64,000 nucleotides of DNA, from assembly GCA_030065975.1 (NCBI GenBank), contig JASJCN010000009.1, forward strand, positions 47 through 64,046. Direction: 5' to 3'. Both the position numbers and the translations under genes were made by a program. The stretch is from Myxococcota bacterium (GTDB lineage: Bacteria > Myxococcota_A > UBA9160 > UBA6930). Below the pieces are notes generated by a model that ran no database searches, had not been told where the DNA came from, and saw only the letters and a program-made list of their open reading frames with translations. Shown here piece by piece: positions 20,456 through 58,197 of this stretch (positions within the stretch are counted from its first letter, which is position 1; every line of letters begins with the position of its first letter).

Positions 20456-22177
20456 TCAGCCCGAGGCCTTGGCCTCGAACAGATCGTCCTGAGCGGGCAT
20501 GCGCTGGCGCGCGGCCGCCACGATGTCGGCCGGCACGTCGAAGACCTGCCCGTTGATGGGATCCTTCGACAGGCACTCGGCCATCACGTCGTCGCTGGCG
20601 CCGAAGCCCGCGGCGTCGTTGAACGCCCACTCGTCGGCCAGGCACTCCCAGCCCTGGTCGTGGATCGCCTCGCGGCTGAACTCCTCGCCGTAGAGCGCGC
20701 CGTAGAAGTCCCGGATGTTGTCCAGGTTCGGCTGCAGGAACTGGCAGAAGCCCGAGGAGTCGCAGACCGCGTTCACGATCTGGACCTTCTGGGACTCCCA
20801 GGCGAACTGGTCGGGCTGCAGGCCCGGGTTCACGATCAGTCCCGCGGTGTGGTCGGCGCCCATGGGGCTCGTGCAGTAGGTCACGCCAGTGGCCTTGAGC
20901 GGCCGCGGATCCCAGGCCGGGATGGCCTGGCCCTTGGCGTGGGGCACGCGGTGGTGGCCCGTGAACTTGCCCGTGGCCACCGCGCCGTTGCCGATGGCCT
21001 TGCCGCGGTCGGTGAGCTCGGGGATCTCGGCGATCAGCTTCTTCATGGCCTCGGCGTCGCCCCACTCGAGCTGGCCGGCGTCCATCAGCACGGCGATGGC
21101 GGCGCCGGTCTCGATGGTGTCCAGGCCGACCTCGTCGCAGAGGCGGTCCATGTCGGCCACGTCCTCCCAGCTCGCGACCGCACAGTTGGCACCGAGCAGG
21201 GTGAGCGTCTCGAACTCGAGCGCCGAGGTCTTGTACTCGCCCTGGGCGTCGTGCACGACGTTCGAGCACTTCACGATGCAGCCGGTCATGCAGTTGTGCA
21301 TCTCGCCGCCGCGGGTCTCGAAGCTCTCGACGATGCGTGCGCCGTCGAGGGTCTGCGCGTCGGGCGACTGGCCCTCCACCCGGTTCTTGTAGGGGAAGGT
21401 GTGCAGCATGTTCGCGACGGGCACGACGGAGCTGGTGCCGGTCTTGAACATCTGGGGGCCGTCCAGGTAGTCCTTCGTGTAGGTCTTGCACAGCTCGCCG
21501 AACTTCTTGCGGTCCGAGGGCTGGCGCACGCTGGCGCGACCGGGGTCGACCATCACGTACTTGAGACCCTTGCTGCCCATCACCGCACCGAGGCCGCCGC
21601 GGGCCGCGTGGCGCGCCGGGAAGCGGTTGTCCTGGTCGGTCGTCGCGACCGAGGCGCCCGAGAGCCGGGCCTCGCCCGCCGGTCCGCAGGTGATGAAGGA
21701 GGCGGTCTTCGGATACTGGCCGTGGAGGTCCTGGCACAGGGTGTAGTTCCACTTGCCCTTGTGCGCGTCGGCCGAGGTGACGCTCACGCCGTCCTCGTTG
21801 ATCTCGACGGCGTAGCGCGCCTCGGCGTCGGACGGAGCGCCCTTCACGACGATCGCGCGGTAGCCGAGCTTCATCAGGTGCTGGCCCGGCTGGCCGCCGG
21901 TGTTCGCCTCCTTGATGCCGCCGGTGAGCGGGCTCTTCGCGCCGATCGAGATGCGGCCGGACGTCGGTGCGGCGGTTCCCGAGAGCACGCCCGGTGCCAT
22001 CACGAGCACGTTGTCCGGGCCGAGCGGATCGCACTTCGGATCGCAGTCCGCCGTGAGGATCTTGGCCGACAGGGCACGCCCGCCCAGCAGCTTCCATTCC
22101 TCGGGGAAGTCCTTCACCTCCGCCGTCTGGTTGGTCATGTCGACGTAGATGATCTTGTCGCCGCTCGGGCCGCTCAT
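20456..22177 (-). CDS. aor: Aldehyde:ferredoxin oxidoreductase (AOR) family tungsto/molybdopterin enzyme
   Basis: 573 aa. The N-terminal AOR_N region reads GGRALSAKIL...GPDNVLVMAPGVLSG...RISIGAKSPLTGGIKEAN. The 4Fe-4S Cys motif is HNCMTGCIVKCSN. The C-terminal AOR domains include DTIETGAAIA and SPMGADHT. Confidence 0.92.
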   Translation of the reverse strand: MSGPSGDKIIYVDMTNQTAEVKDFPEEWKLLGGRALSAKILTADCDPKCDPLGPDNVLVMAPGVLSGTAAPTSGRISIGAKSPLTGGIKEANTGGQPGQHLMKLGYRAIVVKGAPSDAEARYAVEINEDGVSVTSADAHKGKWNYTLCQDLHGQYPKTASFITCGPAGEARLSGASVATTDQDNRFPARHAARGGLGAVMGSKGLKYVMVDPGRASVRQPSDRKKFGELCKTYTKDYLDGPQMFKTGTSSVVPVANMLHTFPYKNRVEGQSPDAQTLDGARIVESFETRGGEMHNCMTGCIVKCSNVVHDAQGEYKTSALEFETLTLLGANCAVASWEDVADMDRLCDEVGLDTIETGAAIAVLMDAGQLEWGDAEAMKKLIAEIPELTDRGKAIGNGAVATGKFTGHHRVPHAKGQAIPAWDPRPLKATGVTYCTSPMGADHTAGLIVNPGLQPDQFAWESQKVQIVNAVCDSSGFCQFLQPNLDNIRDFYGALYGEEFSREAIHDQGWECLADEWAFNDAAGFGASDDVMAECLSKDPINGQVFDVPADIVAAARQRMPAQDDLFEAKASG

Positions 22178-52276: not shown

Positions 52277-52903
52277 TCAGCCCGACTCCGAAGGCCAGCG
52301 CGCACGCAGGGGCTGGTCGAGGGTCTCGAGGAAGAGCTCGAGGAAGCGGTAGGTCAGCCCCCACACCACGTGCCGATCGGGCACCCCGACGAGGATGCCG
52401 GGATAGCGCTGGTCGGGGACGGCGGGGTGTCGGAAGTCGACGCTGCGCGCCTCGTCGCCGAGCTCGAAGAGCGGCACCCAGTGGGTGGTGGCGACCTCGT
52501 GGTTCACCCGCAGCGGGCCCGGCTCCGGGTGGTGGTACACGAACGCCGAGATCACGAGCCCGGCCGGGCGACCGGCGTGACGTCCCTCGAGATCGTCGAG
52601 GCGACCGAGCAGGCGCGCGGGGGAGAGGGGCAGGCCGACCTCCTCCAGCGTCTCGCGCTCGGCGGCGGCGCGCAGACTCGCGTCGGTGGCGTCGACGCGA
52701 CCGCCGGGAAACGCCATGTGGCCCGACCACGGGTCCCCTTCCTTCTGTGCGCGCTCGATGAAGAGCACGTCGGGCCCCGACGCATCGGACGGGGCCCGGT
52801 CGCGCAGCACCACCGCCACCGCCGCCCGGTTCACGCCCGACCGCGCGATCTCCTTGGGAGCGCGGTCGGACAGGCGATCCGCGATGGCATCGGCGTCCAT
52901 CAT
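52277..52903 (-). CDS. NUDIX hydrolase (CoA pyrophosphatase-like)
   Basis: From the ATG at 52903. The Nudix box is GHMAFPGGRVDATDASLRAAAERETLEEVGL, preceded by RAAVAVVL. Confidence 0.85.
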   Translation of the reverse strand: MMDADAIADRLSDRAPKEIARSGVNRAAVAVVLRDRAPSDASGPDVLFIERAQKEGDPWSGHMAFPGGRVDATDASLRAAAERETLEEVGLPLSPARLLGRLDDLEGRHAGRPAGLVISAFVYHHPEPGPLRVNHEVATTHWVPLFELGDEARSVDFRHPAVPDQRYPGILVGVPDRHVVWGLTYRFLELFLETLDQPLRARWPSESG

Positions 52904-54411
52904 CGTTCCACGGGTCCCCCTGCGGTCTCGCAGTCGAGCTCGATCCACACGAGCCGCTCGGAGGTCGCGCCCTCGGCGTGGCGCCGCTGGCCGAGCACCA
53001 GGGCGTCGCCGGCCGGCGCCAGCGCCACCCCGGTGGGAGCACCCCAGCTGCCCAGCGCGTCGAGCTCGATGCTCTTCGCGTCGCCCTTCGGCCCGACGAA
53101 CAGACGCGTCTCGCCCGGGCCGGTCACGCCGTCGGGCGTGAGCGCGGGCGCGAGCCGACCGAGCAGGAAGCCGAGCCGCTTCGGAAGCAGGGAGGCGGCA
53201 CCGCTCGGGCGCGTGGTGACGATCGCCAGGCGCTGCCCGTCCGCCGAGAAGGAGACCGAAGCGCCCGCCGCCACCTCGGCGATCGCGGGCAGCGTCGCGT
53301 CGGTGGCGGGGTCGGAGAGCACGAGATCGAGCGGACGGGCGTCGTGCCCGTAGCCCACCGCCAGGGCCCGGGCGTCCGGCGCCCAGGCCAGGGCACCGGG
53401 CCACTGCAGGCCGCCCTTGGTGACCAGGGTGGTGCCCGTCAGGATCACGCCGCCGTGGCCGCCTCGAATCGCGCCACGCACCACCGCAAACTCCGGGCCC
53501 AACACCCGGGTCCACAGGATGCCGCGACCGCTCGGGTCGTAGAGGGGGTGGTCGTCCGGGCGCAGGTCGCGCGTCAGGCGGATCGCGGCGCGCGGGCGGT
53601 CGTCCTCACGGATCTCGAGGGCATACAGCTCGGTGTTCATTGGATGGCGCCAGCTGCGATGGCGGTCGGTGTCGAAGACCACGCCGGTGCCCGCAGGGCT
53701 CGGTGCCGGCCTGCGATTGTGGCCGGGCTGGCCGCAGGTGAGGCAGCGCACGCTTCCGTCCTCGCGATCCAGGCGCTGGATCTGGCGCTCGCCCTCGACC
53801 TCGGCGTCGAAGAACACGAAGCGGCCCTCGCCCGCCAGGCGCGGATGCGCGCCGCGATCGAGCAACGTGGAGGAGCTCGCCACCGCGGCCCCGCACTCGA
53901 GGAGCGGCTCGAGAGCGACCGTGGCATCCACGTCGTAGCTGCCGCTCGCGAAGGCGCCCGGCGGAAGCGCCGGAGTCCCGAGCAGCAGCGGCGAGAGCGC
54001 CGCCGCTCCCCCGAGCAGCACGCCGAACCCGGCGAAGCCGAGCGCCACGATGCCGACGTGGCGCAGCAAGGGATCGGCGGGCCCGCGGCGGCGCGCCGCG
54101 AGCCATAGGCTCCCGACCAGTGCGGCCAGGGCGAGGACGCCGGCGAGGGCCCGATGCGGCGGGAGGTCCAGCAGCAGGGCCCCGATGGCGGGCCACGCCA
54201 GCAGCGCCGAGCTCGCGCCCTGAGCCAGCATCCGGCCGCGCTCGGGCTCCCAGCCTCCGTTCCGCTCGAGGGCGAAGACGCACAGGGTGAGGAGGCCGCC
54301 GCCCAGGAGCGCACCGCCGATCAGGATCGGGAGCGGCGCCTCTCGGGAGATGAGCAGGACGAGGAGAGCACCCGGACCGAGCCCGGCCAGCAGGGACCAC
54401 AACAGATGCAC
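52900..54411 (-). CDS. Membrane-anchored hypothetical protein with TolB-like beta-propeller region
   Basis: Four to five N-terminal TM helices, then WD40-like/TolB-like repeats (RPAPSPAGTGVVFDTD..., PLYDPSGRGILWTR, LAWAPDARALAVG, SFSADGQRLAIV). GTG at 54411 is preceded by GGAGGcaagc. Its 3' end overlaps the start codon of the downstream NUDIX gene by 4 nt (52900-52903). Confidence 0.6.
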   Translation of the reverse strand: MHLLWSLLAGLGPGALLVLLISREAPLPILIGGALLGGGLLTLCVFALERNGGWEPERGRMLAQGASSALLAWPAIGALLLDLPPHRALAGVLALAALVGSLWLAARRRGPADPLLRHVGIVALGFAGFGVLLGGAAALSPLLLGTPALPPGAFASGSYDVDATVALEPLLECGAAVASSSTLLDRGAHPRLAGEGRFVFFDAEVEGERQIQRLDREDGSVRCLTCGQPGHNRRPAPSPAGTGVVFDTDRHRSWRHPMNTELYALEIREDDRPRAAIRLTRDLRPDDHPLYDPSGRGILWTRVLGPEFAVVRGAIRGGHGGVILTGTTLVTKGGLQWPGALAWAPDARALAVGYGHDARPLDLVLSDPATDATLPAIAEVAAGASVSFSADGQRLAIVTTRPSGAASLLPKRLGFLLGRLAPALTPDGVTGPGETRLFVGPKGDAKSIELDALGSWGAPTGVALAPAGDALVLGQRRHAEGATSERLVWIELDCETAGGPVER

Positions 54412-54560
54412 GCTTGCCTCCGGAGCTTGGGAGTCGCGTTTCGGGGAGCCGGCCACCGCGGAGCGGTGATCGGGGATGGCCCTCGACGGTAGCAACGGCG
54501 CCGACGAGGCGGCCCCCGGGCGCCGTTTCCGCCTCGCGGGCTGCTACGTTGCCGGCCCTG

Positions 54561-55769
54561 ATGGCCGCCCTGCGCACCCTCCCCAGAAAGGCGCGCGAGA
54601 TCCTCGAGCTGGCGCGCGACGACCGCTCCGCCGCCCGCCAGGCCCTCGGGCGCCTGTCCCTGGACGCCCAGGTCGCGCTCGTGTGCGAGTCGCCGCTCTC
54701 GCGCCGGGCCGAGCTGCTCGACCTCGCGCCCGAGCCGGAGAGCCTGGTGCCCGCCCTGCCCCCGGCCGAGCTTTGCTTCGTCGCCTCTGCCGTCGGGCTC
54801 GCCGATGCCGGCTGGCTCCTCGAGCACGCGAGCGACACCCAGCTCACGACCTGCGTCGACCTGGACGCGTGGCAGCCGCTCACTCCCGACCGGGAGCGGC
54901 TCGGGCAATGGCTCGAGGCACTCGCCGACGCGGGCGAGCCGACCCTGCTCCGCGCGGCGCACAGCATCGACATGGAGCTGTGGGCGCTGCACCTGCGCGA
55001 ACGCGTCGCCGTGGAGATGAAGCCCAGCGGTGACGAAGACTGGTCGCCTCCCACGGGCGGGCAGAGCCTGGACGGGCAGCTCTTCTTCGTCGCGCGCGAT
55101 CCCAAGGACGATCTCAACGATCTGGTGACCCTGCTGCGGACGCTGTTCCAGAACGACTACTGGTTCTACTTCCGACTGCTGCAAGCCGTCGCATGGGAGG
55201 CGTCGAGCGAGAACGAGGAGTGGGCGCTGCGCTGGCGCGCCGGACGCCTGCAGGACATGGGCTTCCCTCCCTGGGAGGAGGCCATGGCGATCTACGGCAG
55301 CCTGCGCCCCGAGCAGCTGCCGCATCTCGCCGAAGCGGCGCAGCCCATCGCCGTCGGAGAGTGGCCGCTTCCGGTGTGGATGCCGGAGCTGCCGGTCGCC
55401 TTCGAGGGCGAGGAGGCCCCGCTCCTGTTCCGCGCCATGGCCGAGCTGCGTGACGAGGAGGAGCGACGGGCTCTCTCCTTCGCGTTCCTGTCGCTGGCGA
55501 ACCGGGTCGCCGTCGCCGACGGCATGGCGCTAGGCGACGCGGAGAGCCTCCCCGTCGCCATCGACAAGGCGGCCCGCGTCGCCAGCGGTGGCCTCGCCTT
55601 CCTGTGCGAGGAGCACGGCATCGCGGCCACCGAGGTGCTGCAGCGCACGAGCCTGGATCGGCTGTTCCGTGTGGGCTTCCACCTCGACGACTCGATCTCG
55701 GCACCGGCGACCCGATTCGACGACGACGAAGCCGACGAGGCCGAGGACGGCGAGACCGAGGAGTCCTGA
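54561..55769 (+). CDS. Hypothetical protein with acidic C-terminus
   Basis: 402 aa from the ATG at 54561. Normal composition (DYWFYFRLLQAVAWEASSENEEWALRWRAGRLQDMGFPPWEEAMAIYG). It ends FDDDEADEAEDGETEES. No family assigned with confidence. Confidence 0.65.
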   Translation: MAALRTLPRKAREILELARDDRSAARQALGRLSLDAQVALVCESPLSRRAELLDLAPEPESLVPALPPAELCFVASAVGLADAGWLLEHASDTQLTTCVDLDAWQPLTPDRERLGQWLEALADAGEPTLLRAAHSIDMELWALHLRERVAVEMKPSGDEDWSPPTGGQSLDGQLFFVARDPKDDLNDLVTLLRTLFQNDYWFYFRLLQAVAWEASSENEEWALRWRAGRLQDMGFPPWEEAMAIYGSLRPEQLPHLAEAAQPIAVGEWPLPVWMPELPVAFEGEEAPLLFRAMAELRDEEERRALSFAFLSLANRVAVADGMALGDAESLPVAIDKAARVASGGLAFLCEEHGIAATEVLQRTSLDRLFRVGFHLDDSISAPATRFDDDEADEAEDGETEES

Positions 55770-55774
55770 GCGCC

Positions 55775-55830
55775 GGTGCATCGGTGCATCGGTGCGTCAG
55801 GGCGTCAGGGCGTCAGGGCGTCAGGGCAAA
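55775..55830. repeat. Tandem octamer array, 7 units grading from GGTGCATC to AGGGCGTC; the second half is a G3N5G3N5G3N5G3 G-quadruplex motif
   Basis: Units start every 8 nt from 55775. GGG runs lie at 55800, 55808, 55816 and 55824. Located between two convergent 3' ends. Confidence 0.95.
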
Positions 55831-55836
55831 TGGAAA

Positions 55837-55864
55837 GGGCCCACGAGCGCAAGCTCGCGGGCCC
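55837..55864. terminator. Hairpin GGGCCCACGAGC-gcaa-GCTCGCGGGCCC between convergent genes (bidirectional terminator candidate)
   Basis: Read directly. 11 of 12 stem positions pair and the tetraloop is GCAA. It lies 23 nt beyond the histone-like gene's stop. Confidence 0.55.
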
Positions 55865-55886
55865 TCAACCATCGAAGCCTGACGAC

Positions 55887-56090
55887 TTAGAGGTCGACGG
55901 CCTTGAGCGTCTTGCGCTTGTTGCCGATCGCGCGGCCCTCGGCGTCCTTGATGGCCTCGCGCACGACCTTGTCGAGCGCCTCGTAGAACTCGCCACCGAC
56001 GTTGCACTTCTTCACGGCGGCCTTCACGCGGGCCTTGGAGATGATGAGCTCGGCGGGCTTGCGCGCGGCCTTCTTGCGTCGTGCCGTCAT
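55887..56090 (-). CDS. Bacterial histone-fold protein (DUF1931 / Bdellovibrio Bd0055-like) with basic N-terminal tail
   Basis: The 67-aa sequence is MTARRKKAARKPAELIISKARVKAAVKKCNVGGEFYEALDKVVREAIKDAEGRAIGNKRKTLKAVDL. The helix-loop-helix-loop-helix spacing and the C-terminal RKT(L/V)KxxD(L/I) match archaeal HMf-type and bacterial DUF1931 histone folds as I remember them. It uses a TAA stop, rare here. Confidence 0.7.
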   Translation of the reverse strand: MTARRKKAARKPAELIISKARVKAAVKKCNVGGEFYEALDKVVREAIKDAEGRAIGNKRKTLKAVDL

Positions 56091-56199
56091 TCGATTGGAA
56101 CCTCAACGAAGAGCCGGATCCACCGCTGCCCCCACAGCAGGAACGAGAGGTCCGCCCGGCATGTCGCCGCGGACACGTCGCGTGTCGCGGATTCGGCCG

Positions 56200-56227
56200 A
56201 TACTAGGGGAAGGCCCGTTGGAGTCAA
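56200..56227 (-). promoter_or_regulatory. Sigma70-type promoter for the histone-like gene: TTGACT -16 nt- TAGTAT
   Basis: The minus strand reads TTGACTccaacgggccttccccTAGTAT, with -35 at 56227-56222 and -10 at 56205-56200. It sits in a locally AT-richer patch about 110 nt upstream of the ATG. A CCGCGACAC...GTGTCCGCGG hairpin lies in the leader. Confidence 0.55.
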
Positions 56228-56335
56228 AGCAAAAAAGCCCGTTACAGGCCCTCTGAGTGCTGATTTCGATGGGATCGCCAATGATCCTGCATTGGCCTCG
56301 CGATGGGCTCCGACGGCAGCTCGGGGCAGCGGGAC

Positions 56336-57100
56336 TCACTGCGCCGACTGGACGGCACGGGCGAGCGCGGGCAGGAGCGCCTCGAGCGGCTGCTCGAGCT
56401 TCCAGTCGCACTCGGAATCGAACGGAGTCTCGGAAGCGGTCAGGATCGCGGTGGCCGCACCACCGCTCCGCGCCAGGGGAAGCATCTGGTTGATCGGCCC
56501 GACGACGAGCGAGGTGCCGGCCGCGACGAAGAGGTCGCACGATTCGGCGGCGCGCATCGCGCGCTCGAGGTCGGCGGCGACGAGGCCCTGCCCGAAGGAG
56601 ATCGTCGCGGGCTTCAATGGGCCCCCGCAGGCACATTCCGGGGTCGCGACGCCGACCTCCCACTCCTGCTGAGCCGCTTCGCGGGGTGATCTCGCACCGC
56701 ACCCCATGCAGACGACCGCCGCGTCGCTGCCGTGGATCTCGACCAGCCGCTCCGCGGGCTGGCCGGCGCGGGCGTGGAGGCCGTCGACGTTCTGGGTCAC
56801 GAGCAGCTCGAGGCAGCCGGCGCGGGTCAGCTCCGCCAGGGAGAGGTGACCCGCGTTCGGCTGGGCGGCGGAGATCAGGGCCCAGGTCTCGCCCTTGTAG
56901 CGCCAGTACTCCTCCCGCGCGGCGCGCGAGGCCATGAAGTCCTGGATGGGGACGGGCTGGTAGCTCTCCCAACGTCCGCCGGGAGAACGGAAGTCGGGGA
57001 TCCCGGAGGCGGTCGAGAGGCCCGCCCCCGTGAGGACCACCACCGAGCGCGCCCCGCGCCAGTGACGCGCCAGATCCTCCAGACCTTCCAACCCTTCCAA
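56336..57100 (-). CDS. cobB: NAD-dependent protein deacylase, Sir2 family (sirtuin, CobB-like)
   Basis: [34 protein letters not shown] (catalytic His), the Zn ribbon CMGCG...[11 protein letters not shown] and [10 protein letters not shown]. The track start is a TTG at 57100, so the exact start is uncertain. Confidence 0.9.
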
Positions 57101-57177: not shown

Positions 57178-58197
57178 ATGCTCCGGAAGCTCGACCTGCG
57201 CTCCGACACGGTCACGAAGCCCACCGCTGCCATGCGAAAGACCATGGCCGAAGCCCCCGTGGGCGACGACGTGTACGGGGAGGACCCGAGCGTCAACGCG
57301 CTCCAGGAGTCGGCCGCGCGGCTCCTGGGCAAGGAGGCGGCACTCTTCTTCCCCACGGGCACCATGGCCAACCAGGCCTGCCTGCGGGCGCTCACCCATC
57401 CCGGCGACGTCGTCATCGCATCAGAGGACTGCCACATCCTCAAGTACGAGTCGGGTGCGGCCTCGGCCGTCTCCGGAGTCCAGATCAAGACCGTGGGTCA
57501 CGCCGGACTCTTCGCGGGCGACGAGGTGCGGTCGGCCCTCCATCCAGACGACGCCCACTTCGCTCCGACCACGCTCCTCGCCGTCGAGAACACCCACAAT
57601 GCGAGCGGCGGCCGGGTGTTTCCCCAGGAGCTCCTGGGCGAGTCGATCGCCGTGGCGCTCGAGGCCGGGCTGGCCCTGCACCTCGACGGTGCGCGGCTCT
57701 GGAACGCCCACGTCGCCTCGGGCACGCCCCTGGTGGAGCTGGCCGAGCCCTTCGACACCGTCTCCGTCTGCCTCTCGAAGGGCCTGGGCGCGCCGGTCGG
57801 ATCGGTCGTGTGCGCCTCGGGGCAGCTGATCACGCGGCTTCACCGCATCCGAAAGATGCTCGGCGGCGGCATGCGCCAGGCGGGCATGCTGGCCGCAGCC
57901 GGTCGCTACGCCATCGAGAACCACCTGGAGCGGCTGGCCGAGGATCACGACAACGCGCGTCAGCTGGCCGAGGGGCTGAAGCGGCTGGGCTTCGGCGTCG
58001 AGGAGATGCCGGAGACGAACATCGTGGTGTTCGACGTCCCGGACGGACGCCGCTTCCTCGAGGAGACGCGCAAGCGCTCGCTGTGGATCAACCCGATTTC
58101 GACGCAGCGCTTCCGAGCCGTGACGCACCTCGACGTGAGCTCCGCCGACATCCAGGAAGCGCTCGAGCGGATCATCGAGGCCGATCTGGTGGCCTAG
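57178..58197 (+). CDS. ltaE: Low-specificity L-threonine aldolase (PLP-dependent)
   Basis: [29 protein letters not shown] pattern, TGTMANQ and [15 protein letters not shown] (PLP lysine). Confidence 0.9.

Follow-up and report, generated by a model that had tools for sequence, protein, structure and literature searches.

Genes and signals at the locus

We analysed a stretch of 64,000 nucleotides from an uncultured Myxococcota bacterium (contig JASJCN010000009.1; hereafter the window, G+C content 71.8%), focusing on a short minus-strand gene for a candidate histone and on the sirtuin gene that lies upstream of it. An earlier reading of the same DNA (the original prediction) had proposed that the two genes form a minimal writer/eraser-type chromatin module, in which a histone with an acylatable tail stands next to a deacylase. 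Our results point to an alpha3-truncated histone, probably of the face-to-face (FtF) type and with a conserved basic N-terminal tail, whose pairing with the sirtuin looks like lineage-restricted local gene order.

The histone open reading frame (ORF) was called as before, with an ATG start and a TAA stop on the minus strand (Table 1). The encoded protein has the sequence MTARRKKAARKPAELIISKARVKAAVKKCNVGGEFYEALDKVVREAIKDAEGRAIGNKRKTLKAVDL and the C-terminus GNKRKTLKAVDL. The G+C content of its first, second and third codon positions (0.62, 0.41 and 0.94) gives a strong coding signature, judged by third position (GC3) versus second position (GC2). Among 45 ORFs of the window, a set of crude calls made by GC3>GC2, the histone gene alone ends in TAA, in keeping with the rarity of that stop codon noted originally. 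An identical histone sequence is present on an ENA metagenome scaffold, and the one flank retained there has the same neighbouring genes.

Table 1. Features of the histone locus, by position in the window
Feature	Position	Strand	Details
DUF6178 gene, 451-residue ORF	54414..55769	+	Pfam DUF6178 5.4e-71; convergent with the histone gene
Predicted intrinsic terminator of the histone gene	55830..55866	-	14-bp GC-rich stem at 55839-55866, then U-rich UUUCCAUUU
Histone gene, 67 residues	55887..56090	-	ATG start, TAA stop; predicted alpha3-truncated, FtF-type
Predicted histone-fold core, residues 14-67	55890..56051	-	alpha1 (~19-25), loop L1, alpha2 (33-56), loop L2, one-turn alpha3 (64-66)
Basic N-terminal tail, codons 1-13	56052..56090	-	MTARRKKAARKPA; 7 Lys/Arg, no acidic residue
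Putative 5' leader, ~100 nt	56091..56193	-	GAGG Shine-Dalgarno site 10 nt before the ATG; transcription start site deduced
Putative sigma70-type promoter	56200..56227	-	-35 TTGACT at 56227-56222, 16-nt spacer, -10 TAGTAT at 56205-56200
T6 tract after a 3-4 bp GC stem	56229..56250	-	Directly upstream of the -35; sequence reading
Sir2-family nicotinamide adenine dinucleotide (NAD)-dependent protein deacylase (predicted), 254 residues	56336..57100	-	Pfam SIR2 (PF02146) 2.1e-37; exactly 245 nt upstream of the histone gene
Low-specificity threonine aldolase (GntG family)	57178..58197	+	Divergent from the sirtuin gene; control gene for synteny

Identity and fold of the 67-residue protein

Searched as a single sequence, the protein gave little. 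No histone or DUF1931 model of Pfam or NCBIfam matched it even at E<=1, the Pfam models CBFD_NFYB_HMF and Histone included, and a PADLOC scan returned nothing. Its matches in the PDB were marginal: 0.011 for the archaeal histone HTkC (9F2C) and 0.32 for the Leptospira histone HLp (9QT0). Its homologues, by comparison, are numerous, forming at least 1247 clusters at 90% identity (E<=1e-3) and 121 clusters at 50% identity; some carry database labels such as 'histone H3/H4' (JGI) or, in one homologue, 'DUF1931' (NCBI). A profile built from 27 close homologues matched HTkC at 6.9e-7, and a family profile built from 40 diverse homologues matched HTkC at 8.6e-18, the Bdellovibrio histone HBb/Bd0055 (8CMP) at 2.4e-13 and HLp at 4.3e-13. 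Farther matches of the family profile were HmvA (2.4e-7), NF-YB (2e-3), HMfA (5e-3) and H4 (0.12). Weak Pfam matches also appeared among the 40 diverse members, to DUF1931 in 19 (best 7e-4) and to CBFD_NFYB_HMF in 18.

The predicted structure agrees with the profiles. An AlphaFold2 monomer model made with the diverse alignment had a mean predicted local distance difference test score (pLDDT) of 81 and placed alpha1, alpha2 and a one-turn alpha3 as listed in Table 1, after a disordered N-terminus; it replaced a model made with the close-homologue alignment alone, which had reached a pLDDT of 59. When the model was compared with the PDB by Foldseek, the top eight matches were all chains of HTkC, HLp or HBb, with template modelling (TM) scores of 0.67-0.85 and root-mean-square deviations (rmsd) of 1.2-2.2 A, and the next were NF-Y and H4 with much lower TM scores. 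At 5e-3 the Foldseek E-values are weak by absolute standards, which a fold of 55 residues leads one to expect. The sequence contains the motif of the alpha3 family, R59-K60-T61-L-K-A-V-D66, with its Arg-Asp (RD) clamp between R59 and D66, and the hydrophobic positions of alpha1 and alpha2 and the basic residues of alpha1 are conserved in the family. On the strength of the family-profile matches, the modelled fold and the Foldseek ranking, we regard the protein with high confidence as an alpha3-truncated histone.

The original prediction, which had recognised a histone fold, named the lack of a significant histone-fold or DUF1931 match as evidence against itself. At the level of Pfam and the single protein that is literally the outcome, whereas profiles and structure show homology to histones. 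Its placement in the DUF1931 family did not survive: Pfam DUF1931 (PF09123) describes pseudodimeric proteins of two fused folds, and the window protein is a single fold of 67 residues with no match at E<=1. It does not belong with the nucleosomal histones either, in which alpha3 is ~10 residues long; here alpha3 is a single turn and HMfA is reached by the profile only at 5e-3.

Across 80 species the histone is 68-93% identical, and the neighbouring DUF6178 protein of the same species 45-59%. The class of histones itself has already been described, and what is new here is a representative of a large environmental clade. Within loop L1 (KKCNVGG) stands Cys29 (codon 29, 56004-56006), which never varies in the close family and is frequent in the broader bacterial set; the Cys is missing from HLp, HTkC and HBb, and a redox or metal role is conceivable. 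Some genomes carry more than one copy of the gene, as shown by two contigs (loci L029 and L045) of the metagenome-assembled genome KW1-S15_115, whose paralogues are 79% and 75% identical to the window protein. Among the relatives there are also natural two-fold doublets of 117-122 residues (P0149, P0152, P0155, P0158 and P0162). A weak tblastn match of the histone elsewhere in the window (21957-22097, minus strand; 34% over 47 residues, E = 0.003) is a chance one, lying inside an aldehyde:ferredoxin oxidoreductase gene (AFOR_N/AFOR_C).

Assignment to a histone class

Schwab et al. (2024) divided alpha3 histones into several categories, including FtF histones, which are tetramers, and 'bacterial dimers', the group of Bd0055 (PMC11390915). 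The FtF category is formally defined by a torus-shaped homotetramer, predicted or observed, and the bacterial dimers are without the FtF-logo interface residues R48 and N52 (PMC11390915). Hu et al. (2025) described the tetramer contacts of HLp as R49, S52 and N53 against R55, T61 and F63, found R49, N53 and R55 conserved among bacterial FtF histones, and showed that the tetramer wraps ~60 bp of DNA (PMC12701072).

We mapped the residues of the window protein onto HLp by means of the PDB alignments and the text of PMC12701072. The series R53-x3-N57-x-R59-x-T61-x4-D66 has spacing identical to R49, N53, R55, T57 and D62 of HLp, and none of the five varies among the 27 close homologues; in the 40 diverse ones their conservation is 90% or higher. 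The DNA-contact residues of HLp map K15 to R21, K17 to K23, K21 to K27 and R59 to K63, each invariant in the close homologues. HBb has Ser and Asp at the positions of R53 and N57. Because R53, N57 and R59 are present with the spacing of HLp, and HBb has Ser and Asp, we place the window protein in the FtF class, an assignment that we consider probable and in which the tetramer is a predicted one.

The alternative is a dimer histone of the Bd0055/HBb type, to which the original prediction had likened the protein, and which would bend DNA or coat it end-on without wrapping. Bacterial dimer histones have been reported from Myxococcota_A (PMC11390915), the family profile reaches HBb as noted above, and our model superimposes on HBb with a TM score of ~0.7-0.8 (0.69-0.79), about as well as on HLp. 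Against this, the Arg and Asn whose absence characterises the bacterial dimers (PMC11390915) are kept by the window protein and by its whole family, and the single sequence and the narrow profile find only the FtF histones HTkC and HLp in the PDB, leaving HBb undetected. We therefore think a Bd0055-type dimer unlikely, the original likeness to Bd0055 having been wrong in this detail.

HLp (Leptospira perolatii; PDB 9QT0-9QT2; PMC12701072) likewise has a short disordered segment at the N-terminus, followed by a single alpha3-truncated fold of ~55 residues. Its tetramer residues (R-x3-N-x-R), its RD clamp and the basic positions of its alpha1 are all found in the window protein too; our model superimposes on it with TM scores of 0.72-0.85 and an rmsd of 1.2-1.3 A. 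The two are only ~29% identical, however, and they differ in several respects: the tail of the window protein is longer and far more basic (7 of its 13 residues are Lys or Arg, and relatives have as many as 10), its loop L1 is two residues shorter and holds the invariant Cys29, and the neighbours of the Leptospira gene are SMC, MAP and DUF350, as against DUF6178 and an alpha/beta hydrolase or sirtuin in the clade of the window. Tetramer formation and DNA wrapping are established for HLp, whereas for the window protein they are predicted from sequence and a monomer model. The best PDB match in both sequence and structure is the FtF histone HTkC of the archaeon Thermococcus kodakarensis (PDB 9F2C; PMC11390915), with 32-36% identity and an rmsd of 1.2 A on chain B. 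EFYxAL and RKTL motifs are common to the two proteins, but HTkC is tail-less, has Glu at the position of N57 and has a loop L1 four residues longer. HBb/Bd0055 (Bdellovibrio bacteriovorus; PDB 8CMP, 8FVX and 9EZZ) has the same alpha3-truncated fold, RKT...D motif and size, and differs, beyond its interface residues, in acting as a dimer and in having no basic tail.

The N-terminal basic tail

The Lys/Arg-rich tail of 13 residues seen originally is real. In the model it has a low pLDDT (mean 52 over residues 1-10), and a survey of 78 species-representative loci together with the window found a basic tail in all 79, with a length of 9-26 residues (median 17), a median of 8 Lys plus Arg and almost no acidic residues. 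Most of the 79 begin with the conserved start MAA(R/K)KK. Over all tails Lys outnumbers Arg 400 to 163, K6 is invariant in the close homologues, and Lys and Arg swap freely. Since they do so, and since tail length varies, a charge-based role fits better than a specific modification site.

The tail had been put forward as a distinction from known bacterial histones, which it is not, and a tailed bacterial histone can no longer be called undescribed (PMC11390915, PMC12701072): bacterial FtF histones are known from Myxococcota, and tails are common among them, mostly positively charged and 'H3-like' (PMC11390915). The tail is thus conserved, yet of a kind previously known. A KAARK(S/P)A stretch resembling the surroundings of H3K27 is a chance match, unconserved in relatives. 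More distant relatives range from tail-less proteins of 56 residues to tails of 37-40 residues, and in some that are ~50-60% identical (P0178, P0184, P0175 and P0203) Lys-rich tails of up to ~40 residues resemble those of linker histones.

The transcription unit

The TTGACT-16-TAGTAT promoter of the original prediction held up, being the only promoter-like site between 55700 and 56500, where shuffled sequences led us to expect 0.1. In 55 of the 79 loci the same arrangement, TTGAC(T/A)-16-TAnnnT, recurs at a distance of 70-250 nt before the histone start codon. Past the stop codon, at a distance of 20 nt and between the convergent histone and DUF6178 genes, lies a hairpin of -39.5 kcal/mol (z = -5.6; none of 200 shuffles as stable), which the terminator scan caught in part. 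With its own promoter and its own strong terminator the histone gene appears to be a monocistronic unit, as alpha3 histone genes are in general (Schwab et al., PMC11390915).

Two features of the spacer between sirtuin and histone fared less well. The weak hairpin with a U-run, a stem of 3-4 bp before the T6 tract, was not called as a terminator in our scan. Of 54 relatives, 40 have a T-tract (at least 4 T, at most 14 nt from the -35) irrespective of which gene lies upstream, and most of these have no co-directional gene upstream at all. We therefore assign the tract to a conserved control region of the histone gene and reject a sirtuin terminator as its main function. Nor is the leader, described as structured and ~110 nt long, any more structured than its shuffles (z = +0.48), and it matches no Rfam family. 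Leaders of relatives span 35-210 nt and are poorly conserved save for the Shine-Dalgarno site; their median z of -1.5 is a mild lean towards structure. Two perfect 8-nt tandem arrays (55774-55827), CGGTGCAT repeated 2.8 times and GCGTCAGG repeated 4.2 times, lie in the stretch from the DUF6178 stop codon to the terminator hairpin.

The sirtuin and the conservation of gene order

The sirtuin was identified correctly at the outset, as was its position. It has the motifs GAGLS, the His of EIHGS and four Cys (C130, C133, C155 and C157), and its best relative in the PDB is Archaeoglobus Sir2Af1 (5e-38), with which the GAGxS, His and Cys positions align; the second zinc pair is CxC (C155, C157), versus CxxC in Sir2Af1. 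Against NCBIfam it scored 4e-63 with a deacylase subfamily, below the curated cut-off, and stayed under every equivalog cut-off. The YxxR of class III desuccinylases is missing, with Lys and Thr in place of Tyr and Arg. A defence-type SIR2 (Thoeris, DSR and similar) was rejected, as no PADLOC match fell below E = 0.006 and the zinc Cys and catalytic His are present. By its sequence the protein is predicted to be a general protein deacylase of the CobB/Sir2Af type.

A dedicated module would be expected to recur: for RdgC and IHF histones, the partner gene keeps its place in the operon or neighbourhood from one organism to the next (PMC11390915). We assembled the histone loci of 80 species-representative genomes (69 of 78 delimited loci had at least 3 kb upstream), and counted neighbours by searching the loci for those of the window and by clustering all ORFs. 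Of the 80 loci, 15 have a sirtuin in the 6 kb upstream of the histone gene and 22 have the unrelated threonine aldolase within 6 kb of it. The usual upstream neighbour is a divergent alpha/beta hydrolase of ~274 residues (locus L002 and 57 others, 58 of 80; median distance ~300 nt), and the most frequent downstream one is the convergent DUF6178 gene (66 of 80 by tblastn; median 198 nt from the histone stop). Because the hydrolase gene is missing in the window, the sirtuin there abuts the histone, a direct adjacency found in only five loci (L005, L019, L023, L026 and L061).

On these counts we weighed a histone-sirtuin module in which tail lysines would be acylated, the adjacent sirtuin would be their specific eraser, and DNA compaction would be tuned to NAD+ or metabolic state. 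In its favour, the sirtuins of the 15 species are orthologues (61-72% identical) on the same strand and fall in two subclades, the tail is Lys-rich with an invariant K6, and the terminator between sirtuin and histone is weak. There is also a precedent, since SIR2 enzymes of Asgard archaea deacetylate histone-tail peptides in vitro (bioRxiv 10.64898/2026.07.02.735847).

The synteny evidence points the other way. The sirtuin is absent from 65 of the 80 loci, including that of the closest relative (L001, histone 91% identical), where the histone and the aldolase gene are 237 nt apart. Among complete Myxococcota genomes, OZ245002.1 and OZ252299.1 have no sirtuin close to the histone, and OZ245015.1 has one. 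Among 82 loci of more distant FtF histones (47-84% identical; 44 with at least 1.5 kb upstream) it occurs in none. It is also kept less often than the aldolase, which accompanies it in 12 of the 15 loci and stands without it in 10 others. The hydrolase is present in 9 of the 15 sirtuin loci, and in most of these, where the gap is 1.1-1.5 kb, it intervenes between sirtuin and histone. In a neighbour-joining tree of DUF6178 proteins the sirtuin-aldolase block was confined to two neighbouring subclades, with several losses, and did not occur in the largest subclade. Furthermore, the histone promoter and T-tract are conserved regardless of the upstream gene, tail Lys and Arg are interchangeable in tails of variable length, and no acetyltransferase is found among the annotated genes within ~10 kb of the histone (aconitase, MlaC, MlaA, a DUF815 ATPase, NUDIX, SRPBCC, an M28 peptidase and ApbA).

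The pairing thus looks like lineage-restricted local gene order rather than a dedicated partnership. As the sirtuin is kept less often than an unrelated aldolase and the pairing is restricted to one lineage, gene order offers no argument for a dedicated module, and a sirtuin that is near the histone in 15 of 80 loci, adjacent in 5 and present in none of the 82 more distant ones, beside a histone gene with its own promoter and terminator, does not amount to a conserved histone partner. We accordingly consider the module improbable, and with it the writer/eraser system that the original prediction had envisaged. In our literature search no paper connected bacterial histones with a sirtuin. We think a specific regulatory link between the two unlikely.

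A looser relation may still hold, in that a broad-specificity sirtuin deacetylating an abundant Lys-rich histone in trans would be compatible with the synteny result. Sir2 of Sulfolobus deacetylates the chromatin protein Alba, and CobB-type sirtuins act on HU. The Asgard tailed histones with their SIR2 enzymes and the Alba-Sir2 pair resemble the window in combining a Lys-rich DNA-binding protein and an NAD-dependent deacetylase in one genome, but in those systems deacetylation has been shown biochemically, whereas the window offers a partial, lineage-restricted proximity of genes. That the FtF tail is reversibly acylated in a subset of uncultured Myxococcota, with the nearby CobB-like sirtuin as its main eraser, strikes us as a long shot; if true, nucleoid compaction would respond to NAD+ or acetyl-phosphate levels, and bacteria would have their own counterpart of histone-tail regulation.

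Proposed role of the histone

The account that we favour is of a nucleoid-associated, alpha3-truncated FtF histone. By analogy with HLp and HTkC, the joint between two head-to-tail dimers would be formed by the last part of alpha2 together with loop L2 and the one-turn alpha3, with dimer-dimer contacts made by R53, N57 and R59. The closed tetramer would present a continuous basic rim and wrap roughly 60 bp of DNA, its phosphate backbone contacted by the basic residues of alpha1 (K19, R21, K23 and K27) and by K63. The most likely contribution of the disordered Lys/Arg-rich tail is extra DNA affinity of a non-specific, electrostatic kind. A single-gene unit with a conserved near-consensus sigma70 promoter, an upstream T-tract, a long leader, a good Shine-Dalgarno site, TAA and a strong terminator is how the gene of an abundant architectural protein would be expected to look. 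The position of the sirtuin would reflect local gene order in part of the clade, brought closer here through the absence of the hydrolase gene. Taken as a whole, with the sirtuin incidental, we judge this account likely.

Several results weigh against it. Besides the missing Pfam match and the weak Foldseek E-values, we infer the oligomeric state and DNA binding from a monomer model and homology, and expression from signals in the DNA. The hairpin between sirtuin and histone is weak, and read-through co-transcription is possible. Moreover, two rather deep subclades have kept the sirtuin somewhere upstream of the histone. An arbitrary gene would not be expected to be retained to that extent, and some functional bias is possible.

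Bacterial histones have been recognised only recently, and to our knowledge only HBb and HLp have been studied biochemically. With this locus a very large environmental clade (more than 1200 sequence clusters) gains a well-defined representative, and an unusually conserved histone with a constant basic tail is a reasonable candidate for learning what the tails of bacterial histones do. It provides no evidence for a bacterial histone writer/eraser system, and synteny argues against a dedicated histone-sirtuin module. What remains is of mild interest: the extreme conservation, the size of the clade, the MAA(R/K)KK start, Cys29 and the acidic DUF6178 neighbour.

DUF6178 and the downstream region

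Of all neighbours of the histone in the clade, the DUF6178 gene is the most constant. The deposited product (P0241) has 402 residues and is 49 residues shorter at the N-terminus than our 451-residue ORF, with 100% identity. DUF6178 proteins are acidic (median isoelectric point 4.6), and in many orthologues the C-terminus is an acidic tail (DDDEADEAEDGETEES in the window). A second possibility, independent of the sirtuin, is that the basic histone has its functional partner in acidic DUF6178, which might bind it as a chaperone or an antagonist; the sirtuin would then be irrelevant. Its constancy and the terminator region that it shares with the histone would suit such a role. The two genes are convergent, however, and so not co-transcribed, and the adjacency is limited to one Myxococcota clade: DUF6178 occurs in 9 of the 82 more distant loci, all of them with a histone at least 67% identical to that of the window, a pattern that vertical inheritance of gene order explains. 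No sequence relative of DUF6178 was found in the PDB and no paper mentioning it in our literature search. We regard a partnership as very unlikely.

In most relatives a NUDIX gene follows directly after DUF6178, at a median of 1.6 kb from the histone. Between these two genes the window has an ORF of 531 residues (52900-54495, minus strand), which may be an insertion specific to this genome.

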